IMG/VR virus record: IMGVR_UViG_3300030399_000018
Length of the DNA stretch: 52,734 nt
Strand: one strand, 5' to 3'
Source of the DNA: a virus
This document shows positions 8,909 through 28,323 of the stretch, piece after piece; position 1 is the stretch's first letter; each line of letters opens with the position of its first letter. A program made the translations under genes and the position numbers. The notes under the pieces are model-generated. The model saw only the letters and a program-made list of their open reading frames with translations, was not told the origin of the DNA and searched no databases.

Positions 8909-9085
8909 TTACTCGTCTTCATAATTGTCGTTCAATGCTTCCAAGAGTTCATCATACTTCTCAATCACTTGGTCCGTCAAGAACTCAACAAGTTCAGTGG
9001 ACGTAATATCCAACAGTTCCAAAATCGTCAATTCATCAAGCTGACTTAGCTTTTCTTTGATCTCTTCAATCGTCAGTTCACTCAT
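8909..9085 (-). CDS. Small acidic hypothetical protein (58 aa)
   Basis: Hand translation gives MSELTIEEIKEKLSQLDELTILELLDITSTELVEFLTDQVIEKYDELLEALNDNYEDE. The ATG overlaps the stop of the HD gene (ATGAGTGA). Confidence 0.4.
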   Translation of the reverse strand: MSELTIEEIKEKLSQLDELTILELLDITSTELVEFLTDQVIEKYDELLEALNDNYEDE

Positions 9086-9626
9086 CCAATTCCTTAAACA
9101 TCTTCATAAAAGCAAAGGCTGCGGTCTTGGGCTCCATATTCAAAGGCATATATTCTGGATCAATCTCAGGGCGAATGCCCCTCCAAAGACTCCAATCATT
9201 ACCTTGTGATGGCAGTAAGTAATGTGCCTCATCACTTAACTGTTCCCAATCTGCTTGTTTTACTTCTTTATAGTTATCCCAATCCAGATTATACTTCTCA
9301 CCAATAACTTCCATAATCTTTTCTTCCATCTTATTGTAGTCGGGAAGAAATTGTTTGATCGGAGAGGGCATATCTGTAATATACGCTTCGGCAGCATCAT
9401 GCAGCAGTCCGGTACGACACAATCGAGTGTCGAATCCTTTGGATCGCAAACGGCGTGCCACGGCAATGCTGTGTTCTGCCACCGACATAAAATCTGAACA
9501 GTGGCCATTAAACCGACAGTTGTTAGATAAAGCGAACGCAATGTCGTTAATATCAATCTGCTCTGGCTTAGGATCCATGAAGTAAAAAGATTTACCGCTG
9601 GACGTCTCGATATATGGTTCGATCAT
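9078..9626 (-). CDS. HD-domain phosphohydrolase (YfbR-like 5'-deoxynucleotidase type)
   Basis: SVAEHSIAVARRL (His) and LLHDAAEAYITDMPSP (HD...E..D) match HD-superfamily metal-binding motifs. Confidence 0.85.
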   Translation of the reverse strand: MIEPYIETSSGKSFYFMDPKPEQIDINDIAFALSNNCRFNGHCSDFMSVAEHSIAVARRLRSKGFDTRLCRTGLLHDAAEAYITDMPSPIKQFLPDYNKMEEKIMEVIGEKYNLDWDNYKEVKQADWEQLSDEAHYLLPSQGNDWSLWRGIRPEIDPEYMPLNMEPKTAAFAFMKMFKELDE

Positions 9627-10075
9627 TTAATATATTCCTCGATCCTATTTAAAATCGTAGGATCTGCGTCTATGGTTCCAACATACCAATTACACTGGTG
9701 ACACAATAATCCTCTAACCCGTCCAGTAGTATGATTATGATCCACATGGAGTGGGATCTTACCTGGTTTGCGGTTACATAATTTACACCCACCGTTCTGA
9801 GTGTCTAGCATCCTGGCATAGTCTTCCAGGGTTAATCCGTAGTTCTTCAATAGCATTCTACTTCTACGAATTTCTGGATTGTCCTTCTCTTTTTGCTTTC
9901 TTCTATCTTGGATGACTTTGGCCCTGTCAGGATTAGCAAGAATCCACTTAGTAGTATTCGAACGCTGATCTGATTTATAGACTGGATTCGTTTCCTTTAG
10001 CCATTTATCATAACAGGGTTTGCACATACCTCGTGCTTGGTGTTTTCGTTGTGGATGACACTCAGCTAGTTTCAT
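9623..10075 (-). CDS. Recombination endonuclease VII family protein
   Basis: CKLCNRKPGKIPLHVDHNHTTGRVRGLLCHQCNWYVG is the typical Endonuclease_7 core. There is also an N-terminal CxxC-type cluster (GMCKPCYDKW). Confidence 0.85.
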   Translation of the reverse strand: MKLAECHPQRKHQARGMCKPCYDKWLKETNPVYKSDQRSNTTKWILANPDRAKVIQDRRKQKEKDNPEIRRSRMLLKNYGLTLEDYARMLDTQNGGCKLCNRKPGKIPLHVDHNHTTGRVRGLLCHQCNWYVGTIDADPTILNRIEEYIK

Positions 10076-10442
10076 TCAGAATGCCGTTTGGTCCGTATGG
10101 AAGGTCGTCCCATTTGGTCCCCTTCTTGCTCAGAGCAGAAAGAAACATCCAACAGCAACCAAGATGATCAATGTGAGGTAGGCCCGATTCGCCATCAAGA
10201 TACTCACCTTTCTTGATAGCCCCAAGATGGCGCTCCATAGCAGCAACCAGCCTACTATAGTTAATACCTTTGGCCCAGTTCCAACTGGCGTATTTATTTG
10301 AACCAAAGGTAAGTACGGCAGCCAGCCCCTCCAATGCCCAAGGATCGAGTAGATCCATTCTAGGCTTGTCTGTATCATGCTTGGTCCCACCTGCATGTTG
10401 ATCGGGGAATAGATCCCCTTGTGCGTCTGCTTTAAATCCCAT
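10062..10442 (-). CDS. DUF5664-type (dATP/dGTP diphosphohydrolase N-terminal-like, MazG-related) nucleotide pyrophosphohydrolase
   Basis: KHDTDKPRMDLLDPWALEGLAAVLTFGSNKYASWNWAKG...SGLPHIDHLGCC matches my memory of that family (K.D.GKPR..L.P..al..va.VltfGa.KY...NW..G). I chose the ATG at 10442; the ORF track starts at 10502. Confidence 0.7.
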   Translation of the reverse strand: MGFKADAQGDLFPDQHAGGTKHDTDKPRMDLLDPWALEGLAAVLTFGSNKYASWNWAKGINYSRLVAAMERHLGAIKKGEYLDGESGLPHIDHLGCCWMFLSALSKKGTKWDDLPYGPNGILNETS

Positions 10443-10641
10443 TGTACAAGTCTCCGGTATCGGCCAGAGAGCTGGTGTAATCGCCGCGATTAATTCTATC
10501 ATTTAGATCCAGTATCATTGACGCCAAGATGTGAAACGTACTGGTGTTGGCGTGTTGCCAGTCAGTCAACGTACCGCTAACCAATGCTCGGCCAGCGAGT
10601 TCAATCATCTGCTGCAACTCAGTATAATCTTTAGCTTCCAT
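10432..10641 (-). CDS. Hypothetical protein
   Basis: 69-aa ORF in the operon frame chain. Its start overlaps the upstream gene end. Confidence 0.45.
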   Translation of the reverse strand: MEAKDYTELQQMIELAGRALVSGTLTDWQHANTSTFHILASMILDLNDRINRGDYTSSLADTGDLYNGI

Positions 10642-13700: not shown

Positions 13701-13730
13701 ATCTTAACACAATTTAATAAGGCTTGTCAA
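13701..13730 (-). promoter_or_regulatory. Sigma70-like promoter upstream of the SSB gene
   Basis: The minus strand reads TTGACA (13730-13725), an 18-nt spacer, then TAAGAT (13706-13701). It is embedded in the last codons of the polymerase gene. Confidence 0.5.
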
Positions 13731-14436
13731 CTTTAACCATATCAAGAGTGTTCATTCCGACTTTCACTTCACAAGCTAAGGGCACTGTCCAGTTAATCTT
13801 GAACGTCCGATTCAGGTTGCTCACCAGATCGTCGAACACCTCGTAGAACAGCTTTACAACTTGGTCCACATACTTCTTCTCGCAATCCACTACGATTGAA
13901 TCGTGGACCGTTGAAATCAACAGTACCGGAATACCAAGAGCCTTCAACCGGCGTGAGAAGCTGATACGGGCGATCATCATTACATCGGCACCTGTCCCCT
14001 GTACTGGGTAGTTTGTTAGAGTTGTCCATGGTACTTTGAGTTCTCCGTAGCGATCTCGCGTGATTTTGATAGTCCACTCTCGTCCTGACGGACCGACGAG
14101 CGGTCGACCAGCCATGACCTCTTCCGCCCAGTGCTTATGTGTCGCATCAAGTACTTTGTATTTACCATAGAATTTTTCTCCTATTCCGTCCCAGAAAGCG
14201 GGACTGGTGGACACGTGCATGAAATCCGGATCCACTGAAAAGGCGTAGCCGCTCCCTCGGAAAATAGTGCGGAAGAGGTAGATCTTTGCAATGAATCGAC
14301 TAGGTAGGTTAAAGGCTTTTTCGTTGAGGCTGTGCGGATCTTGGCCTTCAACAATCTCCTTGATCCCAACCGGGTCTTGGCTAAGCTGCAAGGCTGTGCG
14401 CCACTCCAATTGGCTGGCATCACACGCTACCAGCAT
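13714..14436 (-). CDS. Family-A DNA polymerase, C-terminal fragment (palm motif A onward)
   Basis: It starts MLVACDASQLEWR, which corresponds to Pol I motif A (DYSQIELR). Downstream it has QGTGADVM (motif B region) and VHDSIVVD (motif C, HD). Confidence 0.9.
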   Translation of the reverse strand: MLVACDASQLEWRTALQLSQDPVGIKEIVEGQDPHSLNEKAFNLPSRFIAKIYLFRTIFRGSGYAFSVDPDFMHVSTSPAFWDGIGEKFYGKYKVLDATHKHWAEEVMAGRPLVGPSGREWTIKITRDRYGELKVPWTTLTNYPVQGTGADVMMIARISFSRRLKALGIPVLLISTVHDSIVVDCEKKYVDQVVKLFYEVFDDLVSNLNRTFKINWTVPLACEVKVGMNTLDMVKVDKPY

Positions 14437-14563
14437 TAGATTCCTTCAGATCCCGTGTCTTGACAGCATGACTCAAAGCCTCATATTCTTCCTTACTCAA
14501 GTTCATTATGAAGTCCTGGAAGGTGTCAGAATACTCCAGCTTTACAAAGATATTACTCAACAT
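14420..14563 (-). CDS. Small ORF (47 aa) filling the gap between the two polymerase fragments
   Basis: Hand translation gives MLSNIFVKLEYSDTFQDFIMNLSKEEYEALSHAVKTRDLKESNAGSV. Its stop overlaps the start of the polymerase C-terminal fragment. Confidence 0.3.
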   Translation of the reverse strand: MLSNIFVKLEYSDTFQDFIMNLSKEEYEALSHAVKTRDLKESNAGSV

Positions 14564-14585
14564 CTTTTCTTCGTTGACAACGTGC

Positions 14586-15725
14586 TTAGTCACTATATCT
14601 GCTCACGAATAAATCAGCAGCTTCCCCATCAAAGTTCTGCTGGTTGGGTTTAGAAGCACTGAGGCGACCGCTGACGGCCACGCATTGATTCAGTTGACCG
14701 TGGAGTACACCTGGTTCCCACATCTGCTCTCGGTTGACTTTGATGATCCCTTCATATGTTTTAGACAATAGGGTATCAAGTCGCACCTGACGCTGGATCA
14801 ACTCAATGATTGCTTTGGTAGCTTTGTTGCCTTTGAGTTTGAGTAAGGTATCTTGATTCGTTGCCCAGAATCCCTCCTTCTTTAGTTCCGACCCACGCAG
14901 GGGTGTCACTAATCTGGGAAGTTCGTGGAGAATCTCGATGTTCTTATATTTAGGTTCCCCTACTCGTGCTCCGCTTTTGAAGAAGCCGATGTGCTCCTTA
15001 CCTTCCTCCACAATTGTTCCACCATAAAGAAAGGCAGATAGCTGATCCCCACTACCGAAGTTAATAGGCACGTTAGGATAAATGCTAGATAACTTCTCGG
15101 TGATGCGTTGTATCTCTCCCTTAATCTCCTCCGCACGTTTATGACATAACTCCTCGTCGTACACCAAACCATTTTTCTCCATAGTCTGAAGGATCAATAG
15201 ATCCATGCCCATGAGATTGACCAAACGTTTCTGGTTTTGTGTTAACAGTTCTTGTTGTTTATGATACAAGGCCAAGGTCATCTTGGCATCCCAGATAGCA
15301 TACTCCTCTAGGATAGGCCACGGCACATCTTCCGTTTGGATTCCTTTAGCCCAATACTCCGTCTTAACAACGTCTAACTTATGTCCAAGATCATGCCGCA
15401 CGAGGGCATCCTCCAACGAAGGATACCTCTCCGTTTGTCTACTTAAGATGAACTCGCCGGTTTGGGTGTCGTGGACTCGGCAGATTTCTGGGACTTCGAT
15501 TCCAATTTTGTTGAGCCAATGGATATCAAATTTAATGTTGTGCCCAATGAGAACTCTAGCTCCGAGAATCTTGTCTCTAAGGATTTCGATGCTATCCGAT
15601 GTAACCTTATTTGCTCCCGCAGAAGTCTCATCTGCCCAGCTATAACATACAATTGTGTTTCGTCTATCATAGGGCGCACCATTGTTGTGTGTGCTCGTCT
15701 CTACATCTACGCATAGTGCACTCAT
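14586..15725 (-). CDS. Family-A DNA polymerase, N-terminal fragment (3'-5' exonuclease, thumb and fingers up to the pre-motif-A region)
   Basis: VDVETS (Exo I) and IGHNIKFDIHWL (Exo II) are present. It ends SGRLSASKPNQQNFDGEAADLFVSRYSD, which corresponds to Pol I TGRLSS.DPNLQNIP....IR.AF. Confidence 0.9.
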   Translation of the reverse strand: MSALCVDVETSTHNNGAPYDRRNTIVCYSWADETSAGANKVTSDSIEILRDKILGARVLIGHNIKFDIHWLNKIGIEVPEICRVHDTQTGEFILSRQTERYPSLEDALVRHDLGHKLDVVKTEYWAKGIQTEDVPWPILEEYAIWDAKMTLALYHKQQELLTQNQKRLVNLMGMDLLILQTMEKNGLVYDEELCHKRAEEIKGEIQRITEKLSSIYPNVPINFGSGDQLSAFLYGGTIVEEGKEHIGFFKSGARVGEPKYKNIEILHELPRLVTPLRGSELKKEGFWATNQDTLLKLKGNKATKAIIELIQRQVRLDTLLSKTYEGIIKVNREQMWEPGVLHGQLNQCVAVSGRLSASKPNQQNFDGEAADLFVSRYSD

Positions 15726-15913
15726 TAATCATAAAATGCAGTCGTAGCTACGTCAAACCGGAAGCCCTTGATACCCTCGTCAATAAACTTCTGGGTGTGG
15801 GCACCGGCCGTCTCCACTGCGTCATCGTAGTTCATGAAGATAGCCACAGGAGTTTGATCTTTTCCATCACAGCTACGTACCACCACAAACGCCACTTCCT
15901 GTTTCTTAGTCAT
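15725..15913 (-). CDS. Hypothetical protein
   Basis: 62-aa ORF with 1-nt and 8-nt overlaps onto its neighbours. Confidence 0.5.
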   Translation of the reverse strand: MTKKQEVAFVVVRSCDGKDQTPVAIFMNYDDAVETAGAHTQKFIDEGIKGFRFDVATTAFYD

Positions 15914-16433
15914 GTTTAGCTATGTCCACAATAAGGTGAATGCGATCACTGTCGCCTTTGTTTTGTACACTGTGCATCAAAGAATTATCAAACCAGAAAG
16001 CTGTGCCACCTAGTTCGTTAAGGACTTCATCACCACACATAAAAATACTATCAGCATCGGTAAGGCATAAATGATATCGGTTATACGCATCCGTGTGGTC
16101 CTTGAGGTCTATATGGGGATAGATAACTTTCCCTGGCTTAAGGCGAGTCAACACCATGCGACCCAATACAGCGTCGTCTTCTGTGTACCCCAGATGTTCC
16201 AAGAAGTTATATACAAAATCTCCCAGCTTTTCAAGTTCCCCTGACGCTGGATAGCATCCTTTGTTATCTTCTTCATCAATATCAAAGATCAGCAGAATAT
16301 CATCAGCTTCTTTGTGAAAAGAATTACCTTTGGTTCGAATATCATTCTGGTTCCACAAATGTTCCTTGTCAGCTAGTTCCTCAAGAAGAGGTCCAGCGTC
16401 GAAGTCAAACTCCAACAACTTAAAGTTTTTCAC
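15906..16433 (-). CDS. Aspartyl/asparaginyl beta-hydroxylase-like 2OG-Fe(II) cupin oxygenase
   Basis: YPHIDLKDH...NRYHLCL...WFDNSLMHSVQNKGDSDRIHLIVD matches the Asp_Arg_Hydrox pattern (H.D ... R.H.PL ... FD.S..H...N....R..L..D). Confidence 0.75.
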   Translation of the reverse strand: MKNFKLLEFDFDAGPLLEELADKEHLWNQNDIRTKGNSFHKEADDILLIFDIDEEDNKGCYPASGELEKLGDFVYNFLEHLGYTEDDAVLGRMVLTRLKPGKVIYPHIDLKDHTDAYNRYHLCLTDADSIFMCGDEVLNELGGTAFWFDNSLMHSVQNKGDSDRIHLIVDIAKHD

Positions 16434-18515: not shown

Positions 18516-18838
18516 TATGGATTAGCATCCGGTATAACTGCCCGTCGTCCTTTGTCCCGCTCAAGGGCAAGTTGGCAGTGGTTGGTTTGAAACCAGCTAA
18601 GGAGCTTACACATCACACATCCCCACTCCTCACCGGCTAGCTGAGCCTTCGCAGAACGGCTTGAGATGGTCTCGTTGGGATCCCCGAAGGTCAGGGCATT
18701 ACCCAACTGGTCCAACGTCACCAGGACGTTCTTAAGCCAGCTATCACCTTGAACTGCTTGGTACTTCCCCAGGATAGCCAAGGGCATTCGGAGGAACGAG
18801 ACAGTGCAATTCTCCAGATATAGTTCTAGTTTGTTCAT
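18515..18838 (-). CDS. Hypothetical Cys-containing protein coupled to the protease gene
   Basis: 107-aa ORF with a 4-nt overlap onto the protease gene. It has DQLGNALTFGDPNETISSR and HC motifs but I did not recognise a family. Confidence 0.55.
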   Translation of the reverse strand: MNKLELYLENCTVSFLRMPLAILGKYQAVQGDSWLKNVLVTLDQLGNALTFGDPNETISSRSAKAQLAGEEWGCVMCKLLSWFQTNHCQLALERDKGRRAVIPDANP

Positions 18839-19509
18839 TTAATCAGTTCCAAAGACTTAGCTGGAGTCAAGAAGTTCAGGCCAAACGGGACGTCACTGCC
18901 CCGATCAGCTTTGAGTGCCAGTTCCGCGACACCAACGACACAACTATGTACGTCGTCAACAGCAGGACCACCGCTGTTTCCTGGAAGCATGACACCATCA
19001 TACTGAACAAAAGTAGCAAACTTACCAAGATCGTCCGTGAGGTCTCGACTCGGGTTGCTGACAGTGCCGAACGAAATAGTTTTACTTTGTGCAAGTGGTC
19101 CGCCCATTAAGTGTACTCGTTCCCCATAATATGCGGGGTCTTTACAAACAGGAAAACCTTTCGGCCAATTGATAGTCCCGTCTGTGGTCTTCAGCGTCAT
19201 CAGATCAGGACCAGTGGCAAAGTTCTCCCCGTCCCCTTTCTTTTCGATAACAAAGTCGTGCGGCTTGCCGTCCCCGAAGTCCACTACATAAGGGCTTGCT
19301 GGCACTGCCTGTCCCTCCTGACAGTGGGCTGCTGTAACTACCGTGTGGGTTCCAGCCAGTACCCAACCACTACAGTGGCCCAAGTCCATCGTAACCGACA
19401 CAACACTGTCTAGTTGTTTCTGGAGAGGCGGAAAGTAATGCACGTTAACTGCACATCCGGCCAGCAGAATAGCTAGGCCCACCATTGCACCTCGAATGAA
19501 ATTATTCAC
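18835..19509 (-). CDS. Secreted/lipoprotein trypsin-like (S1 family) serine protease
   Basis: It has a signal peptide with a lipobox (LAILLAGC), the His motif VTAAHC, and the Ser motif GNSGGP. Confidence 0.85.
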   Translation of the reverse strand: MNNFIRGAMVGLAILLAGCAVNVHYFPPLQKQLDSVVSVTMDLGHCSGWVLAGTHTVVTAAHCQEGQAVPASPYVVDFGDGKPHDFVIEKKGDGENFATGPDLMTLKTTDGTINWPKGFPVCKDPAYYGERVHLMGGPLAQSKTISFGTVSNPSRDLTDDLGKFATFVQYDGVMLPGNSGGPAVDDVHSCVVGVAELALKADRGSDVPFGLNFLTPAKSLELIK

Positions 19510-19838: not shown

Positions 19839-20622
19839 CGCCGAATATCTCCTTTACTTGTTCCACTGTATAGCACTTTGGGTCTTCCGTTGTGTGGATA
19901 ACCCGACTTTCATATCCAAGAGTCTGGATCTTTCTACTTAATCCTACCGCTTCTTTGAACTTGTCAGAATCAAGCCACACATCTATGCGCCGATACATTC
20001 TGGCGAGTCGGGTGAGCTTGACTGACGGCATCGATGCACTAAAGCATGGAACTCCAGTTCGACCGGCTTGGGAAACTCGGATGCCGGAAACACAGTCTTC
20101 AACAATGCAGCACGAGTCGCTATCTTGTTCTGGATAGTATGCTGCAATAACATCTGCTGTCGATCCGCTAGTAAAGAAGCGTGACTTGTGGGTTGTTGTG
20201 GCTCGGAAGTTCCGGGCTTGCCACAGGACAACTTCTTTATCGACTCCATAAAAGACATAAAAGAGTTGCTCATTCTTTGGACTCCAAAAAACGTTGTTAC
20301 GGATTAGGTCGGTAGGAGTGAGGTGGTACTTCTGGACCCACTCCACCACACCTAGGGGATAATAATGTCCAATGTCATCAGCAAGGGGTCGTACTCCAGC
20401 TTCGGATTGTGCCCCCACCTTAGGAGTCCCTGAAGTGTTAGCTCCAGCAGATGCCAACTCAGGTAATCCTTGACCTGCTTCGCGGTAAAACTTTCCGCAC
20501 CCGAAACAGAATCCTGATAACCTCGCACCAGCCCCAGCATACCACGCGACATTATCCTTGGACCCACACGACGTACAGGGACCGTGATGGCTAAACTTTG
20601 ACTCACTGGAATGCCCACTCAC
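19822..20622 (-). CDS. DNA primase (zinc finger plus TOPRIM, T7 gp4 N-terminal type)
   Basis: It has CTSCGS...CFGCGKF (a 4-Cys zinc ribbon) and the TOPRIM residues IVEDCVSG (Glu) and WLDSDKF (DxD). The GTG start forms a GTGA overlap with the upstream stop. Confidence 0.85.
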   Translation of the reverse strand: MSGHSSESKFSHHGPCTSCGSKDNVAWYAGAGARLSGFCFGCGKFYREAGQGLPELASAGANTSGTPKVGAQSEAGVRPLADDIGHYYPLGVVEWVQKYHLTPTDLIRNNVFWSPKNEQLFYVFYGVDKEVVLWQARNFRATTTHKSRFFTSGSTADVIAAYYPEQDSDSCCIVEDCVSGIRVSQAGRTGVPCFSASMPSVKLTRLARMYRRIDVWLDSDKFKEAVGLSRKIQTLGYESRVIHTTEDPKCYTVEQVKEIFGDETVA

Positions 20623-20924
20623 TTCTTCCTCTTTGGAGAGATATCAATGGTGATCACCTGGGGGATGTCGATGTAGAGTTGATGGATGTTCTCATCTCGT
20701 CCATTCGGCACTGGGGTTGACTTGGTTGATATAGTATTAGCCATCCTCGCCACCTCTTCCCCGCCGCGAGACTGCGCTCGTTTAATTGCAACTTGGGTTG
20801 CCTTCATTGCTTTTTTTATCTCCGGACACCTACAGTCAGGGTTGTCACACGCTGTGTTTTTCATCCACTCAAGCCGAGTCATCTTTCGATTGCACGGCTT
20901 ACAGAGTATGATTGGGTTAGTCAT
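20619..20924 (-). CDS. Hypothetical Cys-rich (zinc-binding-like) protein, 101 aa
   Basis: MTNPIILCKPCNRKMTRLEWMKNTACDNPDCRCPE. The ATG at 20924 overlaps the upstream stop (ATGACTAA). The longer ORF-track version is an out-of-frame run-on. Confidence 0.5.
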   Translation of the reverse strand: MTNPIILCKPCNRKMTRLEWMKNTACDNPDCRCPEIKKAMKATQVAIKRAQSRGGEEVARMANTISTKSTPVPNGRDENIHQLYIDIPQVITIDISPKRKK

Positions 20925-21162
20925 CTTGGGAGTATCCTTCTCCATACCGGTATCCTGGCCAAAGTGATGCGTCCTCACCGATGATCTCTCCCTCATCAAT
21001 CTCATCGATCTCTTCACCAACAGGGCCGTCATCAATGTCCGGAATGTCTTCAGCAACCGTGGAAAAACATCTGTTACACAGATCAACAAAATCACCACTA
21101 CTGCTGTACTTACGAGTGGATTCATAGTCGTTTAATAGTTTATCACACGCTAGACAGTGAAT
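20917..21162 (-). CDS. Hypothetical CxxC...CxxC protein with an acidic tail; start ambiguous (ATT at 21162 after a strong SD, or ATG at 21273/21261)
   Basis: HCLACDKLLNDYESTRKYSSSGDFVDLCNRCF, then a D/E-rich tail. AAGGAGG lies 8 nt upstream of the ATT at 21162. The ATG starts would overlap the GcvH-like gene by ~90 nt. Confidence 0.4.
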   Translation of the reverse strand: MHCLACDKLLNDYESTRKYSSSGDFVDLCNRCFSTVAEDIPDIDDGPVGEEIDEIDEGEIIGEDASLWPGYRYGEGYSQDD

Positions 21163-21175
21163 TTTGGGTTCCTCC

Positions 21176-21613
21176 TTAAGGGAGACGGACGTTAAGATTG
21201 TTGGCCATGTTCCCCACTGGGGCCTGCCTGGGCACCTCTGCTGCTTGCTCCTCAAAATCATACCAATCAACAAACTTCGGCTTTGTCACAGCTTTCCTCT
21301 TTACCTCAACCGCCTTGACTCCCTCCGGCAACACAGTGAAGATAACATCATCTTCCACCAGTCGATCCGGGAAGTTGCGGGCCTTGTCGTTAAAGAACGT
21401 GATACGTCCCGTAAGCGGACTCTTAAGACTCTCCAGCCCATCATTGGTCTCGATCACCATCATCGGTCCCCCTTTCTTAAGATTGATGGCGTCTGCCTGA
21501 AGGATGTGGAAACACTCTTGCATCTTCTCTTCCAGATACGTCTGACGAAGCCCAATGCTTACCACACCAGCCTTGTCAGTCTCTTGCCATATGTTGCCAC
21601 TAAACGTTTTCAT
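21176..21613 (-). CDS. Glycine-cleavage H-protein-like (lipoyl/biotinyl-type hybrid-barrel) protein lacking the lipoyl lysine
   Basis: A gapless 57-residue alignment to E. coli GcvH [57 protein letters not shown] conserves G, E, F, L, G, V, E, P, G, I, N and D. The E-S-V-K lysine aligns to E-T-N-D. Confidence 0.7.
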   Translation of the reverse strand: MKTFSGNIWQETDKAGVVSIGLRQTYLEEKMQECFHILQADAINLKKGGPMMVIETNDGLESLKSPLTGRITFFNDKARNFPDRLVEDDVIFTVLPEGVKAVEVKRKAVTKPKFVDWYDFEEQAAEVPRQAPVGNMANNLNVRLP

Positions 21614-21783
21614 CAACTTCTCCGGAACCCTTCGGTGATTTGTGCTTTAAACTGTTTAATATTTTCTTGCGATCCATACTCTTTTAGGCCCGCTGCTATA
21701 AGACTGAGAAGTAATCTGTGGTCTTCGAATGTTTCCACCTTAATGACGTAAGGTTGGAATCTGCTTTCCATCTGTACTTTCAT
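21613..21783 (-). CDS. Small hypothetical protein (56 aa) between the ATP-grasp and GcvH-like genes
   Basis: Hand translation gives MKVQMESRFQPYVIKVETFEDHRLLLSLIAAGLKEYGSQENIKQFKAQITEGFRRS. It has an ATGA overlap upstream and a TGATG overlap downstream. Confidence 0.35.
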   Translation of the reverse strand: MKVQMESRFQPYVIKVETFEDHRLLLSLIAAGLKEYGSQENIKQFKAQITEGFRRS

Positions 21784-22631
21784 TTACGTAGTTCCTTAAC
21801 AAAAGCCTCGGCGTATTTTTCTACAGTTGTACCTTCCAGGCCGGGGGCCGTGTTTACTTCTAGCACGAAGCACTGGTTGGCTTTCTCGTTCCATATAACA
21901 TCCACGGCTCCGAAGTCGAGTCCAAGTGCCCGAACTGTTGCGATAGCCATTCCTCGCATTTCCTCCGGCTCTTGAATGTCTTCACGACAATACACCCATC
22001 CTGTGTGATGGTTACGAACTTGGTAGTTCGTTTCGAAGTTGTCTGCAAGGTCTTTCCTCTTACGCTTCTCTTGGACATCAATCACTTCTCCAAAGGCAAC
22101 GTGGATTCGGAACTCTTTTTGTTTCTTGATGTACTTAACATACAACGGAGCCGCTGGTAAACTTGCTTCTTTGCCATTAGCAAGTACAATGCCGTCCCCA
22201 GAATGGCCAGTGAGCTTAGTACGACAAACAACAGCAACTCCGGAAGCAAGCCACTCACGGGCTGTGGGTCCACTAGTCGTGAACTCGGGGATACGTATTC
22301 CATCAACCTTCTCCAACTCTTGAAAAGTCCTAAGCTTATTACTTGCAAGGGACACTTGTTTATGATTGTTAACCCACTTAGAGATAGGAACTCCCCCCAC
22401 ATCCACAGGGGGCCCGCTGTTGCCCCAGTTCAAAAGAATCTTATTACCGGGAGTCAGGTTACGCTGACGATTGGGGCGATCAATGTACAGTCTGGGCACC
22501 CGGCACGACAATAACTGACCCATTCTTTCCGACAGGTTCCGCGCCGACTGACTCCCTATTTTGTACGGAAGGAGAAAGATGGGCGATGCGTTCCTGACTG
22601 GCCCGTTGGTTTTCAATGGCTTTCTTTGCAT
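21780..22631 (-). CDS. RimK/R2K-like ATP-grasp amide ligase (start at 22631 or 22736)
   Basis: ILLNWGNSG, VVCRTKLTGHSGDGIVL, EFRIHVAFGEVIDVQEKR and GLDFGAVDVIWNEKANQCFVLEVNTAPGLEG are typical ATP-grasp strands. The N-terminal PIFLLPYKIGSQSARNLSERMG looks like the pre-ATP-grasp domain, which forces an overlap with the upstream gene. Confidence 0.8.
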   Translation of the reverse strand: MQRKPLKTNGPVRNASPIFLLPYKIGSQSARNLSERMGQLLSCRVPRLYIDRPNRQRNLTPGNKILLNWGNSGPPVDVGGVPISKWVNNHKQVSLASNKLRTFQELEKVDGIRIPEFTTSGPTAREWLASGVAVVCRTKLTGHSGDGIVLANGKEASLPAAPLYVKYIKKQKEFRIHVAFGEVIDVQEKRKRKDLADNFETNYQVRNHHTGWVYCREDIQEPEEMRGMAIATVRALGLDFGAVDVIWNEKANQCFVLEVNTAPGLEGTTVEKYAEAFVKELRK

Positions 22632-24201
22632 TGTTGTAGCGCGCTTTGTAGCCTTCACCGAATTCTCCTTGTACCTTATCTGACACACAATCAGCACACA
22701 AAATGGTGGGCGTGTTCTTTGGTTCACCAGAACCAATGATGGACTTCATGGTGACTCGCGTAAACACACGCTCCCACTCTTCAACTTCACGGCCACACTT
22801 ATCACAGTGACAGTTGGCTTGGACATGCTCCCACAGCGGTTTGGGAATCCCCCCATCCGTGGCGTGGACCGGCACGTACTCCACGCGACGTACTTTGTGC
22901 ACGAAGATTGATCGACCACCAACAGTAACAGTCACAAACATTACATCCGCTTGAAGATTCTCACTGATCCACAGATGCAGAGAGGCATTGGTTACAGCTT
23001 GAGGCAGGAATCCGGTGATGTCTGCCATAGACTTGTCGGGTTGCATCACCTTACCAGCAAACCGATACCGCCCCGTGGGAGTTTGAGTCGTCTCCCAAAT
23101 CTTAATCAACAGCGGCTCGCCACGGACGAACTCAGGATCAGAGATCTTGATGTGACCTTGGGCAGCTTCTGCCTTTTCTTCCTCACTAGAGTTCGCTGGC
23201 TGGGGTGTACGGCCATCCGTCCCCGACGCGGTTAAGAGAGCGACGGGCCGGGTGGTTGAGTTCTCTTGTTGTTTCGATTTTGTCCTGTTCGCTAAGCCCG
23301 CTATGGACTTCAGACTTGCCTGACACACGCCTCCCGACTCGATCACACAATCTTTCGAAGGAGTCGTCAGGGCTTGTTGGAGACTCTTGATTTCCGGGGG
23401 GGTCTCCCTTTCCCCCGTTCTGAAAAAAGAGTGGGGTTCCCCATACCCTTCCCACTCGTCTCGTGCGTTGCCAACGAAAACACCCTGATTTTTATACACT
23501 TTCTCCGGCTTGAGTTCCACTTGCGTGATCTTGATGTTACCCAGGAAGTCAAACTCGTACAACTTACCTGGCTCAATGTCTTGAATGTCATCTATCTTGA
23601 TATTGCTGCGGCTTGTGGGCATTGCTGCGATCCACGGCTCACTGGACACCATGTAGGCATCGTCGGTGTACAGCAGACTCAACGGACGTTCCTTGTTGCG
23701 AACAGCATACAGCCGCTCCGTCTCGGTATTGTACCACACCAAAGCGAAAGCCCCATCAATGGTAGGGATGACGTTCTCCGGGGTATCCACAGCCAGCGCG
23801 TGAGCAATGGCGTGGGAGTCCACCTCAACCTTCTCCGTGGTTAGCTTGGTGTGATTCATCAAGGTGCCGTTGTGGACCAAGATGATGTGATTCTCCACAA
23901 ACGGGTGGGCGTTCTCACTGCTGGCTTCCCCAATGGTCTTGGCACGGTTGTGGCCGATAACAAACCGACCCCGATTGATAGCGTCGCTCTTAAACTTGGT
24001 CCATGCGTCCGTGCGGAATAGGTTGAACGGATTGGTTCCGATCTTGACAACTCGGGCCTCTTTGTTACGGAAGCCGGTCATTGCACCAGTGGCATCCTTA
24101 CCTCGTATGGTGTTGATAACAAGCATTTGTTCGAACAATTCAAGATGCTTGTGGGACAAGCCCATTCCTTTTCGCGCGATAATGCCACAAATACCACACA
24201 T
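22480..24201 (-). CDS. Class-II (Ntn) glutamine amidotransferase domain fused to a ~330-aa uncharacterised C-terminal region with a zinc-ribbon-like motif
   Basis: MCGICGI (N-terminal nucleophile Cys), GHNRAKTIG and ILVHNGTL are present. The C-terminal region has no recognisable family and contains CHCDKCG...ILCADC. Confidence 0.85.
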   Translation of the reverse strand: MCGICGIIARKGMGLSHKHLELFEQMLVINTIRGKDATGAMTGFRNKEARVVKIGTNPFNLFRTDAWTKFKSDAINRGRFVIGHNRAKTIGEASSENAHPFVENHIILVHNGTLMNHTKLTTEKVEVDSHAIAHALAVDTPENVIPTIDGAFALVWYNTETERLYAVRNKERPLSLLYTDDAYMVSSEPWIAAMPTSRSNIKIDDIQDIEPGKLYEFDFLGNIKITQVELKPEKVYKNQGVFVGNARDEWEGYGEPHSFFRTGERETPPEIKSLQQALTTPSKDCVIESGGVCQASLKSIAGLANRTKSKQQENSTTRPVALLTASGTDGRTPQPANSSEEEKAEAAQGHIKISDPEFVRGEPLLIKIWETTQTPTGRYRFAGKVMQPDKSMADITGFLPQAVTNASLHLWISENLQADVMFVTVTVGGRSIFVHKVRRVEYVPVHATDGGIPKPLWEHVQANCHCDKCGREVEEWERVFTRVTMKSIIGSGEPKNTPTILCADCVSDKVQGEFGEGYKARYNNAKKAIENQRASQERIAHLSPSVQNRESVGAEPVGKNGSVIVVPGAQTVH

Positions 24202-24204
24202 GTC

Positions 24205-25107
24205 TTAGCCCCTTGTCTTAACAAAATAAGCTGAATCGGCCAGCCGCTCTGGGATCAGAGCATTTAAGGTAGCTGGTTTAGCAAAAGCAGATCGAACGTT
24301 TCCAACGGCGTGTTTCACATCTTCCCACGATTCAAACTTCAGGTATTGGGAATCTTGACCAAAGATCTGGCTAATCAAGATGGACATATCCGTTGACTTG
24401 GACAGCCCCAACACCGTCTTGCGGATCGTGCCAGTTTCCGTGGCCTTACAAAACTCCACCAACTTGGTGAGCAAGCGTACCCAGATAGTGACCTTGTGGT
24501 GGTCGAACGTTCCATGCATCTGGCGGAACTCCAGCGTGCCCTTGTCCCGCAACGGCAGGATGTTCAGGCCCGTGTATTTGGACCACTTCTCCGTCGACAT
24601 TGCCAAATCCTCCGTCGCCATGAACGTCAACAGATTGGTGTCGAACAGAGGCACACAGTAGATGTTCTTGGCACGACCACGGCCCGTAAACTTGTACAAC
24701 AACGGTTCGATGCACGCATACATCAGAATGATGTCGACAACTTTCTCTGTCGCCAGATCCTGCATGTTCAAATGCACGTGAATCGAAGTGCGGGGGCTGA
24801 AGCACGAGTCTTTCTTCAAGGTGTCCTGCAACAATTCCTGCAAGATGTGAGGTGCATACTTCGCTGGCATTGGCTGGCTGATAAACTCAACCCCACCGTT
24901 GCGAAGAGATCCGTCTGCTGTTGGAATCCACGCCCCTGAATTAGGTGTTGAAGTATCTTGAGCGTTCTCCACCTCTACCTCAATGCCCACCAACACCTCA
25001 CTTTCTATAGGATCGCCGGGAACAGGGAACGTGTCAAACGTCTTTTTCCAGGCCGGGTAGATCTTTACCGGCTTCATCCCAAAATACTCTACGATGGTTT
25101 TTCCCAT
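24205..25107 (-). CDS. Amidoligase_2-family (GCS/glutamine synthetase-like COOH-NH2 ligase) enzyme
   Basis: VGIEVEVEN, ADGSLRNGGVEFISQPM and TSIHVHLNM match the 'putative amidoligase enzyme' pattern. I chose the ATG at 25107 (MGKTIVEY, SD GAGG); the longer ORF would overlap the upstream gene. Confidence 0.8.
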   Translation of the reverse strand: MGKTIVEYFGMKPVKIYPAWKKTFDTFPVPGDPIESEVLVGIEVEVENAQDTSTPNSGAWIPTADGSLRNGGVEFISQPMPAKYAPHILQELLQDTLKKDSCFSPRTSIHVHLNMQDLATEKVVDIILMYACIEPLLYKFTGRGRAKNIYCVPLFDTNLLTFMATEDLAMSTEKWSKYTGLNILPLRDKGTLEFRQMHGTFDHHKVTIWVRLLTKLVEFCKATETGTIRKTVLGLSKSTDMSILISQIFGQDSQYLKFESWEDVKHAVGNVRSAFAKPATLNALIPERLADSAYFVKTRG

Positions 25108-25114
25108 GATAACC

Positions 25115-25735
25115 TCAGGCTCTGTTAAAGATTTTCGTGAGTTGATCCATGTATGCAGCCTCGTAAATATTGGTAACTCGGCCAGCAGAGGATACCCGAG
25201 CCACAGGCAACTGCCAATGGAAAAGCACGTGGTCAGGAGCTTTAAACATGGAAAGAGCCAAGCTGTAATTATTGTCCAGTGCCACACTTCTCACCTTCCC
25301 CGTTTCCAATACAGCCAAAGCCTCCTTCACAGTGTAGATCTTGTGGTCAAATGCCGCTTCGATGGCCTTGATGTCCCAACCCACGTGTTGACCACAAATC
25401 CGTCGGGTGGTGTTCTCCAGCACGGAGTTATCCGAACAAATCCCACGGCGGTACTGACGAGTGGGCTTGCGGCGGAACACTACAGCATCTTTCTTGAATT
25501 GAAAGACACCTACCGGAGGATACTTGAACTTGATGCTGTGTCCCTCCGATCCCATGTTAATGGTAATGGCACCATACTCCGCCGAATCCAGATGAAGTAC
25601 CCCAATCTTGGAGGCACTTTCTTCCACCTCCCGGATCTTCACTAGACACTCTTTGTCCTTCTCCTCCATGTGAAGCCACACGAAGGTTCCCTCCCACCGA
25701 CGGCGGAAGTCCTGAATAACTTCGGAATTATTCAT
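25115..25735 (-). CDS. Hypothetical protein inside the ligase operon
   Basis: ORF of about 206 aa. The ATG at 25735 is preceded by GGGGA and overlaps the upstream stop (ATGAATAA). I did not recognise a family. Confidence 0.55.
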   Translation of the reverse strand: MNNSEVIQDFRRRWEGTFVWLHMEEKDKECLVKIREVEESASKIGVLHLDSAEYGAITINMGSEGHSIKFKYPPVGVFQFKKDAVVFRRKPTRQYRRGICSDNSVLENTTRRICGQHVGWDIKAIEAAFDHKIYTVKEALAVLETGKVRSVALDNNYSLALSMFKAPDHVLFHWQLPVARVSSAGRVTNIYEAAYMDQLTKIFNRA

Positions 25736-25916
25736 CAGCATCCCCAATATCTATGTGAATCTTCCCATCATCAGACAAATACACCGACAATAGGTATAAG
25801 TTGGCCCTGTCTGAGGTGTCAAATACTACTTCGTGATTGTGGAGATGTTCAACAGCTTTCAGGCTGTCAAAGCCATCTACTTCGCCTAGGCCGTTAAGTA
25901 ATTCTCCTAGAGTCAC
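25728..25916 (-). CDS. Small acidic hypothetical protein (62 aa) inside the ligase operon
   Basis: ORF with a 4-nt overlap upstream and an 8-nt overlap downstream. Confidence 0.45.
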   Translation of the reverse strand: MTLGELLNGLGEVDGFDSLKAVEHLHNHEVVFDTSDRANLYLLSVYLSDDGKIHIDIGDADE

Positions 25917-26689
25917 AGCCCAAACTCCACTTTGAGTTTTGCCAACAACACCTTGTCAGAGTTATTGATGCAGTTCTGAATGTCCGAGGCTTGGCCTTCG
26001 GTGAATTTACCGCCGTTGCGGACAAACTCAAGTGCCTTGTCCGTCTGATCCCACACCCACTGGATTCGATCATCCGACTCAATCCAGGCGTTGGAAGCCG
26101 TGCGGTACTCCACACCGTAGCTCTTCTTACGGAAGGCACCAGCACGCCCGTAAAGCTCTCTGCGGCCCATATCTTCGTCGAAGTCCAGCATCAAACAGCC
26201 CACGAACAGGTCCATTGCTTGAATGACACCAAGCACATCATCACCATCGTTGAGAGCGATGTGGACGTGACCACCACACGAACGGAGATTCTTGTTCGCA
26301 GCGTTGGGACGCGGATTCATGTCCCCATCCATCCAAGCATTGAAGTCAGGCTCACAGCCAAACGTCTGAGCTTCGAATGACTGGAGTTGGTCGTCGTCAA
26401 ACACCGCCGACGGCTTGACCAGCATCTCAAGGCCCAACTCTGCTGCAAGGTCTTTGATCCAGGTCTTGTTCTTGTTGATATGCAAAATGAAGTCAGCAGC
26501 GGACTTGCACGGGGGCGTGTTGAACTCCACTGTTACATTGTCTTCTTGGACCGCATTGCCCTCTTCATCAATCGGGCGTGGGAACTGCTTCGATCCTCCC
26601 ACCAAACCGACGCTGCTGATAAACTTCTGCGCTGCGGGGTCAAACAAGAAGACTTCAGGGTCCGTACCGAGCATCGTGATGTTATTCAT
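25913..26689 (-). CDS. phiEco32-like COOH-NH2 ligase type 2 (GCS-superfamily amidoligase)
   Basis: MLGTDPEVFLFD, QEDNVTVEFNTPP, FGCEPDFNAW, RSCGGHVHIAL, RRELYGRAGAFRKKSYGVEYRTASNAW. The ATG at 26689 overlaps the upstream stop (ATGAATAA). Confidence 0.8.
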   Translation of the reverse strand: MNNITMLGTDPEVFLFDPAAQKFISSVGLVGGSKQFPRPIDEEGNAVQEDNVTVEFNTPPCKSAADFILHINKNKTWIKDLAAELGLEMLVKPSAVFDDDQLQSFEAQTFGCEPDFNAWMDGDMNPRPNAANKNLRSCGGHVHIALNDGDDVLGVIQAMDLFVGCLMLDFDEDMGRRELYGRAGAFRKKSYGVEYRTASNAWIESDDRIQWVWDQTDKALEFVRNGGKFTEGQASDIQNCINNSDKVLLAKLKVEFGL

Positions 26690-27266
26690 GGAATACAACC
26701 TCGCAAAAGTGAATGATATTACCCGTGTTTTGGTTAACAAACAACATCTCTTGGAACTTGGCCTGCCTCTTGGCCCAGTCATACAGATACTCGAAATGCA
26801 TCCGAGGCTCTCTTTCCACCTCCGGCAAGACAACTTCTGTGGCGTCAACGGGGTGGTCGCGATCCCGCCGTGTTTCCACAAAGTTAAACACCCAACGCTG
26901 TGATGAATATCGACGAACGCTCTTCTGCAAAGTGGCCATCATGGCATCTACAAACTCAAACTCTAGGCAGTTGTCGTAACCGAAGCCGTTGATCTGATTC
27001 ATCGCACAACAGTAGTTGTACGGAGACACAGTAAACCAGAGCAGAGCCCGTCCTTCGACCAGCACTTGGATAAGTGTGTCTGGTTCACGTTCGGGAGCAC
27101 ACTGACGAGCAAAATAATCCGACGCCGCCGCCGAGATTGTCAGTCCTTTTACTGTCTGCCTGAGGCATTGGCCAAGTCGTTCCACAACCAGCTTGTTGTC
27201 CTTCAGGAAATCCTCGGCAACAAGGTGTAAGGCTGGGTTTAGATGATCACGTGAGGCTTGATTCAC
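26682..27266 (-). CDS. Uncharacterised protein, paralog A of the CC[GA] / N-x-N-[ST]-G-N family
   Basis: PYNYCCAMNQINGFG ... RWVFNFVETR ... LFVNQNTGNIIHF. The motifs are shared in the same order with 27946-28323 and 30213-30932. Confidence 0.6.
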   Translation of the reverse strand: MNQASRDHLNPALHLVAEDFLKDNKLVVERLGQCLRQTVKGLTISAAASDYFARQCAPEREPDTLIQVLVEGRALLWFTVSPYNYCCAMNQINGFGYDNCLEFEFVDAMMATLQKSVRRYSSQRWVFNFVETRRDRDHPVDATEVVLPEVEREPRMHFEYLYDWAKRQAKFQEMLFVNQNTGNIIHFCEVVFHE

Positions 27267-27949
27267 AGGACATACTCCCGAACAAGTTTCATGCAGTATT
27301 GGACAAAAGGATCACGACGCGGGTTGCTGTGAAACTCCGGATGGCCCTGGATCCCAAGAGCTTTGATCTTCGGATACCAGACAATTTCGGCCTCCTTTTT
27401 GTCTGCCATCTTTAAATCGTTTTCGCTGGCCTCAGTGATGTAGATACTGCTGCGGCGGGGATGTGCCCAGGCAATCAATTCATGTTCAACATCATATGGA
27501 TACTGCATCTGGTGATGTACCGACGATGTGGCCAAGACGTAACCATCCTTGGTCATCATATCATGAGTACGACCATGATTATCCACATGCTGAATGAGAG
27601 AACCGCCAGCCAAGGCGCAAACCAACTGAGCACCACGACATACGCCAATAATGGGAATACCGCGATCAATAGCCGTGCGACAGGCACTCGCTTCGATAAC
27701 GTCCCGACGACTAGGCGAGTTGGGCGCATATGATCCCCCGATGGCGGCCGCTTCATTGTAGTAGCTTGGGGAGATATCCTCACCGCCCCAGATGACCAGA
27801 GCATCAATCTCAGCCCCGTCAGCTATGTCCTGAGACGTAACAAGCATCGAGTGGGGATACACCTGATCGAACGGCTCTAGCGCCCCTGTACCACGTCCTA
27901 CGTGTCCTAACGTTAGTACTTTCGTCTTCTCTGCTACTTCCATTTTCAT
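27263..27949 (-). CDS. Class-I glutamine amidotransferase-like / peptidase C26 (gamma-glutamyl hydrolase, PuuD-like)
   Basis: WGGEDISPSYY, RRDVIE, IPIIGVCRGAQLVCALAGGSLIQH (nucleophile elbow Cys), SSVHHQ and GIQGHPEF (His) are present. Confidence 0.85.
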   Translation of the reverse strand: MKMEVAEKTKVLTLGHVGRGTGALEPFDQVYPHSMLVTSQDIADGAEIDALVIWGGEDISPSYYNEAAAIGGSYAPNSPSRRDVIEASACRTAIDRGIPIIGVCRGAQLVCALAGGSLIQHVDNHGRTHDMMTKDGYVLATSSVHHQMQYPYDVEHELIAWAHPRRSSIYITEASENDLKMADKKEAEIVWYPKIKALGIQGHPEFHSNPRRDPFVQYCMKLVREYVL

Positions 27950-28323
27950 TCCTTTCTTAGGTTAGACAAGAGGATCCACGAATCCACCATGTTTCCGCTG
28001 TTGGGATTTATAAACTCAGCCACATGTAGGGCGTCCTCGTGTTTCGATACATACTTGCGCAGTACCTCATACTCATACTCTTCTGCCAGGGGCAAGGTCA
28101 GCGGGTCTCCTGAAAATTCCCAACCATTTCCAATTCTCTGGCGCACGAAGTTGAATATGATGGGGCGGCCCTCTGCCGCCTCGACCAGCTCCCCGACCAG
28201 CCCTTTGGGTGTCTTCGACACTACGTCGGCATATTCATCTACACCAAAGTCCCCGGCCTCATACACACCACAACAATATGGTAATGTTGAATATCGAGCA
28301 TCCAGCATTTTAGCCCACGACAA
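27946..28323 (-). CDS. Uncharacterised protein, paralog B of the CC[GA] / N-x-N-[ST]-G-N family
   Basis: LPYCCGVYEAGDFG ... RPIIFNFVRQR ... EFINPNSGNMVDSW. Confidence 0.6.
   Translation of the reverse strand: MSWAKMLDARYSTLPYCCGVYEAGDFGVDEYADVVSKTPKGLVGELVEAAEGRPIIFNFVRQRIGNGWEFSGDPLTLPLAEEYEYEVLRKYVSKHEDALHVAEFINPNSGNMVDSWILLSNLRKE

Follow-up and report, generated by a model that had tools for sequence, protein, structure and literature searches.

A GcvH-like protein with aspartate at the lipoyl-lysine position, encoded beside a RimK-like ATP-grasp ligase in a phage amidoligase cluster

The gene at 21176–21613 and the fold of its product

The stretch analysed here (the window) comprises 52,734 nucleotides of viral DNA from IMG/VR record IMGVR_UViG_3300030399_000018, and the element in question is a gene on its minus strand, at positions 21176–21613, encoding a GcvH-like protein of 145 amino acids. 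The gene runs from an ATG at 21613–21611 to a TAA at 21178–21176, its product starting with MKTFSGN and ending with NVRLP, and it closes a compact block of genes in the same orientation, which includes the ligase genes. The gene of an ATP-grasp ligase, a small open reading frame (ORF) of 56 codons (21613–21783, minus strand) and the GcvH-like gene follow one another without spacers: the small ORF adjoins the ATP-grasp stop codon, and the A of its own TGA is also the first letter of the ATG that opens the GcvH-like gene, a 1-nt overlap within the TGATG at 21611–21615. The initial annotation of this region had placed the gene directly downstream of the ATP-grasp ligase, which holds in the operon sense, but the 56-codon ORF intervenes. 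A scan of 19.5–29.5 kb for promoters and terminators gave counts no higher than in shuffles.

The initial annotation had given a 57-residue ungapped alignment to E. coli GcvH, whose twelve identities (G, E, F, L, G, V, E, P, G, I, N and D) were recovered exactly. The BLOSUM62 score of this alignment was +33, compared with −54 ± 15 for shuffles, none of 20,000 of which reached +33. The alignment had been hand-picked, and the weight is carried by independent homology tests. With the window protein alone, the Pfam model GCV_H (PF01597) gave E = 0.0029 and 17.9 bits, under the gathering cut-off of 22.2. The same model matched 24 of the 36 homologs, all from metagenomes, that were returned by a word-indexed search, with a best E of 4.5e-7.

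When the family was compared with E. coli GcvH by hhalign, a probability of 92.4% (E = 5e-7) was obtained, with E-T-N-D opposite E-S-V-K, and HMMER against T. maritima GcvH yielded the identical register. Pairwise BLASTP against E. coli GcvH and phmmer against the PDB returned nothing meaningful for the protein; the relationship to GcvH is visible only by profiles and fold comparison.

The structural model was built with AlphaFold2 on 36 sequences and reached a predicted local distance difference test score (pLDDT) of about 91 over residues 1–100. In a Foldseek search of the PDB, the 22 best matches were all H-proteins or GcvH-L, with probability 1.00, E-values from 3.6e-5 and a template modelling (TM) score of about 0.62 for the H-proteins when normalised to the target. 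The second-best match was GcvH-L (PDB 5a35), while biotinyl domains matched weakly and ranked below GcvH. No comparable viral structure was found in BFVD. At the level of this model, the hybrid-barrel fold of GcvH, as initially proposed, is confirmed for residues 1–100. The remaining residues, from about 97 to 145 (21179–21325, minus strand), form a C-terminal tail predicted to be disordered (pLDDT 43–55), whose length and sequence vary across the family.

The tetrapeptide E55-T56-N57-D58, encoded by GAG ACC AAT GAT at 21440–21451 on the minus strand, replaces the E-S-V-K(lipoyl) of GcvH. An aspartate at the position of the lipoyl-lysine had been noted earlier, and this was borne out: Asp58, whose GAT codon lies at 21442–21440, aligned with the lysine in every alignment, by HMMER as well as by hhalign. 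DSSP assigned strands to residues 50–56 and 59–65 of the model, so that N57-D58 make up the hairpin turn and the substitution falls on its tip.

Among the 36 close homologs, E55, N57, D58 and G59 were invariant. Broader conservation counts were made on 179 family representatives, in which W9, G21, E55, P66 and P82 showed no substitutions (E55 in 179/179), followed by G69 and A78 (176/179 each), P50 (172/179), C34 (165/179), H36 (163/179), T56 (162/179, plus serine in 11, giving T/S in 97%) and N57 (161/179, 90%). Position 58 was occupied by aspartate in 141 representatives (79%) and by glutamate in 22 (12%), the others being threonine (6), serine (3), asparagine (2) and a few more; no lysine was present among the residues counted at this position. 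The tip is the most conserved surface element of the family, and residue 58 is acidic in 91% of the representatives without being invariant. The two features on which the initial annotation had staked its proposal, a hybrid-barrel fold and a conserved tip residue, were thus both found. Its alternative, a modified lysine in S-L-K-S-P (K64), was ruled out, this residue being unconserved (lysine in only 50/179).

The segment E33-C34-F35-H36 (codons at 21506–21517, minus strand) contributes a near-invariant, family-specific cysteine and histidine at positions that are hydrophobic in GcvH. Relative to canonical GcvH, C34, H36, T56, N57, N80 and F81 are innovations of this family. By analogy with lipoyl-domain topology, C34 and H36 would be expected close to the tip.

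The family and its linkage to an ATP-grasp gene

A HMMER search of 1.84 billion representatives yielded 196 clusters (50% identity) at E ≤ 1e-3, of which 156 remained at E ≤ 1e-10. Canonical GcvH was not reached by this search; because it is not among the 196 clusters, the GcvH-like family is regarded as distinct and bounded. Its members are confined to phage and metagenome sequences, and no cellular homolog was observed in a scan of 185,579 species-representative genomes. Neither megablast nor tblastn against 50,697 phage records gave a match for the region or the protein, and a scan of IMG/VR with the divergent subfamily described below found nothing.

Cultured phages contain virtually no members of the family, apart from a degenerate, unannotated copy recognisable only by hidden Markov model (HMM). 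This sole distant homolog is a 94-codon ORF in Alcaligenes phage vB_Af_QDWS535 (OK172329.1; L009:9650-9934, where L numbers denote the loci compared), detected by hhalign with 97.5% probability. The 843-nt stretch after the ATP-grasp gene of this phage, apparently empty, in fact holds two unannotated genes, the GcvH-like ORF and an ORF for a Zn-ribbon protein with an acidic tail (66 amino acids, L009:9937-10137).

The GcvH-like domain is mildly acidic, with a median isoelectric point of 5.0. The tails of the family are rich in A, R, P and Q, and the last residue was R in 53 of 180 members, F in 38, E in 16 and L in 13. Two types of tail end were distinguished among family members P0037–P0180, one basic (..RRPR, ..RGR) and one acidic with an aromatic residue or leucine (..DDVEEF, ..EPDF, ..DGLEF); the C-terminal docking motifs of bacterial SSB and of T7 gp2.5 and gp4 look similar to the acidic type. 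Several members carry the name "glycine cleavage system H lipoate-binding protein" in automatic annotation by JGI (Joint Genome Institute). Virome surveys could count such entries as a host-like gcvH auxiliary metabolic gene, a role that is impossible without the lysine.

The ATP-grasp ligase is encoded at 21780–22523 (minus strand; 247 amino acids from the ATG at 22523) and was identified by Pfam RimK (E = 6.5e-6) and PHROG 2599. The mechanical ORF extends to 22736; the start at 22523 was chosen by its 44-nt overlap with the gene of the class-II glutamine amidotransferase, as in L001. Searched against the PDB, the profile of the ATP-grasp family matched RimK best (7qyr, 5zct and 4iwx; E about 2e-6, positions 40–240), with D-Ala-D-Ala ligases and graspetide ligases scoring below it, and the best NCBIfam models were MptN, rimK_fam and S6-glutamate ligase. 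Judged by these profile matches, the enzyme is closest to the RimK-type alpha-L-glutamate ligases.

All eight long contigs of the phage lineage shared the same gene order, from the gene of a 125-amino-acid protein through the split DNA polymerase. Genomes of this lineage measure about 52–64 kb and encode a DnaB helicase, a split family-A polymerase, a 5'-3' exonuclease and endonuclease I. With synteny extending over the entire lineage, little weight attaches to adjacency by itself as evidence of a link. In 11 further metagenome loci, the ATP-grasp gene was found immediately upstream wherever upstream DNA was present, including the divergent "QCWHILP" subfamily (L015/L016), and E-[TN]-N-D was kept in all 19 lineage loci (19/19). 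An overlap of the ATP-grasp stop codon with the start codon of the GcvH-like gene was observed in L001, L007 and L009, the last being the Alcaligenes phage.

By helicase, the nearest database relatives were the Alcaligenes phage, the uncultured podovirus MW202697 and the OM43 phages MEP401 and MEP402. MW202697 possesses a class-I glutamine amidotransferase, a COOH-NH2 ligase, the core protein of about 200 amino acids, Amidoligase_2, a class-II glutamine amidotransferase and downstream Zn-ribbon and primase genes, and has neither the ATP-grasp nor the GcvH-like gene; MEP401 is likewise without both. The two genomes keep the Zn-ribbon/acidic-tail gene beside the primase gene. Since both lack the ATP-grasp and GcvH-like genes but have the Zn-ribbon gene, the GcvH-like gene falls on the ATP-grasp side of the junction and not on the replication side. 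Specific coupling of the GcvH-like gene to the ATP-grasp gene, often translational, is shown by these comparisons. The earlier proposal that the protein may be the carrier or acceptor of the "neighbouring ligases" is supported in part, through this coupling to the gene of the RimK-like ATP-grasp ligase. Most phage lineages bearing the cluster (phiEco32, LUZ24-like, O4 and VPp1) are without a GcvH-like protein, which therefore cannot be a carrier common to all versions of the cluster.

The surrounding ligase cluster and neighbouring genes

Window positions 21780–26689 hold a co-linear set of COOH-NH2_lig, Amidoligase_2, class-II glutamine amidotransferase and ATP-grasp genes, as identified by Pfam and PHROG; all window positions given in this section are on the minus strand. 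Next to the ATP-grasp gene is that of the class-II (Ntn) glutamine amidotransferase (22480–24201, 573 amino acids), with matches to GATase_6 and GATase_7. The C-terminal part of this protein, about 340 amino acids (22480–23500), has no family match and contains a C-x2-C...C-x2-C pattern (CHCDKC...CADC). Other versions of the cluster have a shorter extension or none, the total length being 411 amino acids in MW202697 and 470 in the Alcaligenes phage.

The Amidoligase_2 gene, for a glutamine-synthetase-like carboxylate-amine ligase, occupies 24205–25107 (PF12224, E = 1.9e-10; PHROG 7469). It is followed by the gene of the conserved core protein of about 206 amino acids (25115 to about 25735–25747; PHROG 11055), which stands between the two glutamine-synthetase-like ligases in all lineages. 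The AlphaFold2 model of this core protein reached a pLDDT of 93.6, yet no PDB fold match better than E = 0.07 was obtained; its weak matches are tandem small beta-barrels (Tudor/SH3-like). The phiEco32-type COOH-NH2 ligase is encoded at 25913–26689 (PF14395; PHROG 3815, E = 6e-69).

Further upstream lie a gene for a 194-amino-acid protein without family match (26682–27266), which is variably conserved and was found by tblastn in L002 and L022 only, and the gene of a class-I glutamine amidotransferase or Peptidase_C26 of the gamma-glutamyl hydrolase type (27263–27949; PF07722, E = 1e-18), whose best NCBIfam matches, although weak, are gamma-glutamyl hydrolases. The 125-amino-acid protein, also without family match (27946–28323), marks the upstream edge of the syntenic block and was syntenic in 8/8 lineage loci.

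The 56-codon ORF between the ATP-grasp and GcvH-like genes is accessory and occurs in some relatives only. It belongs to a family of proteins of about 56–63 amino acids with the motif F-x-P-x-x-I-x-x-E-T..D..LL, encoded at this place in many relatives: L004:9473-9664 and 9819-10004 (two copies), L005:9813-10004, L008:9828-10004, L018:172-342, L022:9813-9989 and L024:286-477. Other relatives have unrelated small ORFs or none there.

Orthologs of the ATP-grasp ligase were present in 314 cultured-phage records from several families, all with the core cluster, and the gene order of the cluster was as in the window in phiEco32, O4, VPp1, T5S1, Slicky01 and the Alcaligenes phage. The longer ATP-grasp proteins and the ORFs downstream of them in phiEco32, VPp1, Slicky01, O4 and T5S1 were searched for a GcvH-like domain, fused or hidden; this possibility was rejected (hhalign below 1%, nothing by Pfam), and no Rosetta-stone fusion was found among these phages. 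A gene for gamma-glutamyl cyclotransferase (GGCT/AIG2/YtfP) occurs with the cluster in LUZ24-like phages as well as in phiEco32, T5S1, Slicky01 and the Alcaligenes phage. The GGCT HMM detected this gene in L009, L010, L011 and L014, and nothing in the window or the eight lineage loci (best E above 1). In O4 and VPp1, neither a GGCT nor a GcvH-like gene was found within 9 kb of the ATP-grasp gene.

Among the roughly 40 window ORFs scanned with Pfam, none belonged to the gcvT, gcvP, lplA or lipB families, some small ORFs falling outside the scan; nor were LplA, sirtuin or macrodomain genes found here.

On the other side of the GcvH-like gene, a gene missed by the mechanical ORF listing (20917–21162) encodes a protein of 81 amino acids with a CxxC...CxxC Zn-ribbon and a long acidic tail. 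Its start codon is an ATT located 8 nt after an AAGGAGG that overlaps the stop codon of the GcvH-like gene. Most relatives have ATG at this point, while ATT with an "EEPK" upstream frame was observed in the window, L002, L004 and L021. Because this gene stands beside the primase gene even in MEP401 and MW202697, which are without the ATP-grasp gene, it is assigned to the replication module; for the same reason its product was ruled out as a LysW-like partner of the ATP-grasp ligase. The listed ORF of 168 amino acids at 20619–21125 overlaps the Zn-ribbon/acidic-tail gene in another frame over its first 60 codons or so, and this portion is probably untranslated. The real gene in this interval encodes a second Zn-ribbon protein (CKPC...CDNPDCRC), with its start most likely at 20945 or 20924.

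Several more distant genes were also noted. A 175-amino-acid protein of the Asp/Asn beta-hydroxylase family (15906–16433; PF05118, E = 1e-13) is encoded between the helicase and polymerase genes; it has no tblastn counterpart in the flanks of related loci and is therefore accessory. Such an enzyme is curious in view of the Asn-Asp tip of the GcvH-like protein, although nothing points to a link. A YfbR-like HD 5'-deoxynucleotidase (9078–9626, a weak match with E = 1.8e-5) and the N-terminal domain of a dATP/dGTP diphosphohydrolase (10062–10502; PF18909, E = 1.5e-27) flank the endonuclease VII gene and suggest manipulation of the nucleotide pool. The family-A DNA polymerase (13714–15725) is split into genes of 379 and 240 amino acids with a 57-codon ORF between them, identically in all relatives, the Alcaligenes phage and MEP401. 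A trypsin-like serine protease (18835–19509; PF13365), present in most relatives, has an N-terminus, MNNFIRGAMVGLAILLAGC, that resembles a lipoprotein signal peptide with a lipobox.

Possible roles of the GcvH-like protein and comparison with known systems

The RimK-group enzymes characterised so far couple L-glutamate to a carboxylate, which may belong to a protein or to a cofactor. BCCP, which shares the fold superfamily of the GcvH-like protein, is acted on at its hairpin tip by biotin carboxylase, itself an ATP-grasp enzyme. LysX, a related ligase, links its substrate to the carrier protein LysW at the C-terminal glutamate (PMC12998189). For the GcvH-like protein, we favour the reading that it is a dedicated partner of the ATP-grasp ligase, most probably an acceptor or swinging arm modified on a carboxylate of the tip (E55 or D/E58), with a probability of roughly 0.4.

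Under this proposal, a GcvH-fold protein without the lipoyl-lysine would have been recruited as the partner of a phage RimK-like ATP-grasp ligase. We infer that the ligase docks onto the hairpin, activates the tip carboxylate (Asp/Glu58 or Glu55) as an acyl-phosphate and joins it to an amine, which could be glutamate or a pathway intermediate. The protein would then be either a modified acceptor or a swinging arm presenting the tethered group, by presumed hand-over, to the two glutamine-synthetase-like ligases and the two amidotransferases. The chemistry would be that of LysX/LysW or RimK/S6 and the architecture that of biotin carboxylase/BCCP, and through its variable disordered tail the protein probably docks onto a partner that differs between lineages. 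A more specific version is doubtful, namely a swinging-arm carrier whose side-chain carboxylate (Glu55/Asp58) is loaded with an amine by the RimK-type ligase, the product being built or trimmed by the other enzymes of the cluster.

Several observations weigh against modification of a tip carboxylate. To our knowledge, the known protein substrates of RimK-type enzymes offer carboxylates on flexible C-terminal tails and not in tight turns, and the C-termini of the GcvH-like family are unconserved. Position 58 is T, S, N, C or G in about 9% of the representatives, and these residues cannot play the same chemical role. The glutamate equivalent to E55 is also conserved in ordinary GcvH, and the conservation of E55 may be structural. 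Counted from the tip, E55 and G69 occupy positions −3 and +11, where canonical H-proteins also have conserved residues; because this spacing is kept, their conservation may be inherited. In addition, N-D-G is an intrinsically favoured beta-turn sequence.

The distribution of the protein points in the same direction. In the Alcaligenes phage, the homolog encoded directly after the ATP-grasp gene has the tip E-M-S-Y-G and has lost C34/H36 as well as the ARNFPD motifs. In phiEco32, O4, VPp1, T5S1 and Slicky01, no GcvH-like protein was detected by HMM or hhalign, and since it is undetectable there, the ATP-grasp ligase of those phages must have another substrate. Across the genomes compared, the GcvH-like protein is a lineage-specific addition to the cluster and not its universal carrier.

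Some of these observations suit a non-covalent accessory subunit, which would serve as scaffold, lid or specificity factor by binding either the ATP-grasp ligase or the small-molecule substrate of that ligase, with the tip as a binding surface and the tail recruiting another partner. Co-inheritance with the ATP-grasp gene fits such a subunit equally well, a binding surface would tolerate D, E, T, S or N at position 58 where a fixed chemical acceptor would not, the cluster works without the protein in most lineages, and the Alcaligenes homolog keeps fold and position but not the motif. However, the only established role of the hairpin tip in this fold is covalent attachment, and the strong conservation of E55-T56-N57 and C34/H36 at about 30% identity suggests chemistry or a precise site over a generic interface; we regard an accessory subunit as rather unlikely. 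Conservation of this kind could also be read as a small catalytic or metal module, in which an amidase-like or metal site, built from Cys34, His36, Glu55, Asn57 and Asp58, would stand in for GGCT. The family-specific C34 (165/179) and H36 (163/179) would be explained in this way, as would the occurrence of GGCT with the cluster elsewhere and its absence from detection in the window and lineage loci; the Alcaligenes phage, the sole genome with both genes, has a GcvH-like copy devoid of these motifs. This complementary pattern nevertheless depends on few lineages, with O4 and VPp1 showing neither gene within the 9 kb searched, and the proximity of C34/H36 to the tip is taken from lipoyl-domain topology only. 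We know of no enzyme that uses the GcvH fold as such a module, and we consider it improbable.

Two further explanations would dissociate the protein from the ligases. As a decoy of host lipoate metabolism, it would be a mimic of apo-GcvH that binds LplA/LipB or the P-, T- or L-proteins and cannot be acylated. The retained Glu at −3 (E55, 179/179) and Gly at +11 (G69, 176/179) agree with this, as do the GcvH equivalents of W9, G21, P66 and P82; in bovine H-protein, Glu56 and Gly70 flank Lys59 at that spacing and are reportedly, in work attributed to Fujiwara and colleagues, important for lipoylation. A decoy would explain neither why the gene is so strictly linked to that of the ATP-grasp ligase nor why the residues T56, N57, C34, H36, N80 and F81 are new and highly conserved. 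Moreover, E12, E14, S67, D68 and Y70 of E. coli GcvH, which we take to line the aminomethyl-lipoate cavity, align to the variable family positions G6, I8, E61, S62 and K64, and blocking new lipoylation should be slow relative to the lytic cycle; we consider a decoy role improbable. A function unrelated to the cluster, for instance as a replication-associated adaptor, would reduce the adjacency to the place of the gene at the junction of the ligase block and the primase-helicase block. It would accord with the synteny of the whole lineage, by which adjacency is weak evidence, and with the many tails whose acidic residues are followed by a final Phe or Leu (38 F and 13 L of 180) and that are reminiscent of T7 gp2.5, gp4 and SSB, others being basic and RRPR-like. 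Relatives that have the Zn-ribbon and primase genes but not the ATP-grasp gene are, however, also without the GcvH-like gene, whose translational coupling is to the upstream side; an adaptor of this kind is accordingly given a low chance.

The cluster is found in hundreds of cultured phages, including LUZ24-like Pseudomonas phages of phage-therapy-oriented studies. In PMC10580990, which cites Iyer et al. (2009, Mol Biosyst 5:1636), the function of the cluster is given as a prediction, either cell-wall modification or a metabolite. No experiment on its function was found in the searchable literature, which has offered prediction alone since 2009, and no paper was found describing a GcvH-like protein in this cluster. 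A small, soluble and highly conserved protein that travels with one ligase provides an experimental entry point. The window agrees with the phiEco32-type cluster in its COOH-NH2_lig, Amidoligase_2, class-II glutamine amidotransferase and ATP-grasp genes and in the protein of about 200 amino acids between the glutamine-synthetase-like ligases. It differs in that described versions have GGCT/YtfP and no GcvH-like protein, whereas the lineage of the window has the GcvH-like protein and no detectable GGCT.

With GcvH, the protein shares the hybrid barrel-sandwich fold and family-level homology, including Trp9, Gly21, Glu(−3), Pro(+8), Gly(+11) and N-x6-P-[DE]-x-L. Unlike GcvH, the family has Asp or Glu in place of the lipoyl-lysine (N-D for V-K), has acquired the near-invariant C34, H36, N80 and F81, and carries a long disordered tail where GcvH has its C-terminal helix region; its gene lies among amidoligase and replication genes, without a gcvT/gcvP/lplA/lipB context. 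GcvH-L of the SirTM/LplA2/macrodomain operon (PDB 5a35) offers a parallel, being a GcvH paralogue that serves as the dedicated modification substrate of a specialised operon, but GcvH-L still has the lipoyl-lysine, and its lipoylation precedes ADP-ribosylation.

In LysX and RimK systems, the ligase joins an amine to a protein carboxylate, and the LysW pathway then works on the tethered substrate. LysW/ArgW with LysX/ArgX and RimK with S6 resemble the present pair in that a small acidic protein is encoded beside a RimK-family ATP-grasp ligase. LysW, however, is a Zn-ribbon with a conserved C-terminal acceptor glutamate (EDWGE-type) on a flexible tail, whereas the GcvH-like protein has a GcvH fold, a variable C-terminus (R, F, E, L and others) and its candidate carboxylates on a beta-hairpin, and LysZ/Y/J/K-type enzymes are absent at its locus. 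The pairing of an ATP-grasp enzyme with the lipoyl/biotinyl-fold hairpin of a separate small protein is known from biotin carboxylase and BCCP. In BCCP and the E2 lipoyl domains, however, the tip carries a lysine (M-K-M, D-K-A), in contrast to the N-D tip without lysine seen here, and at this locus there is no biotin ligase and the ATP-grasp ligase is of the RimK type.

The GcvH-like protein is consequently a member neither of the GcvH/BCCP/lipoyl carriers, having no lysine, nor of LysW, having no Zn-ribbon and no C-terminal glutamate. The family was previously unremarked, and a demonstration of the carboxylate-arm chemistry would be needed to make it categorically new. Should the tip carboxylate prove to be the attachment point, the swinging-arm principle of lipoyl and biotinyl proteins would extend to a cofactor-free carboxylate arm, LysW-type chemistry would be realised on GcvH architecture, and the product of the phiEco32-type amidoligase cluster would be revealed.

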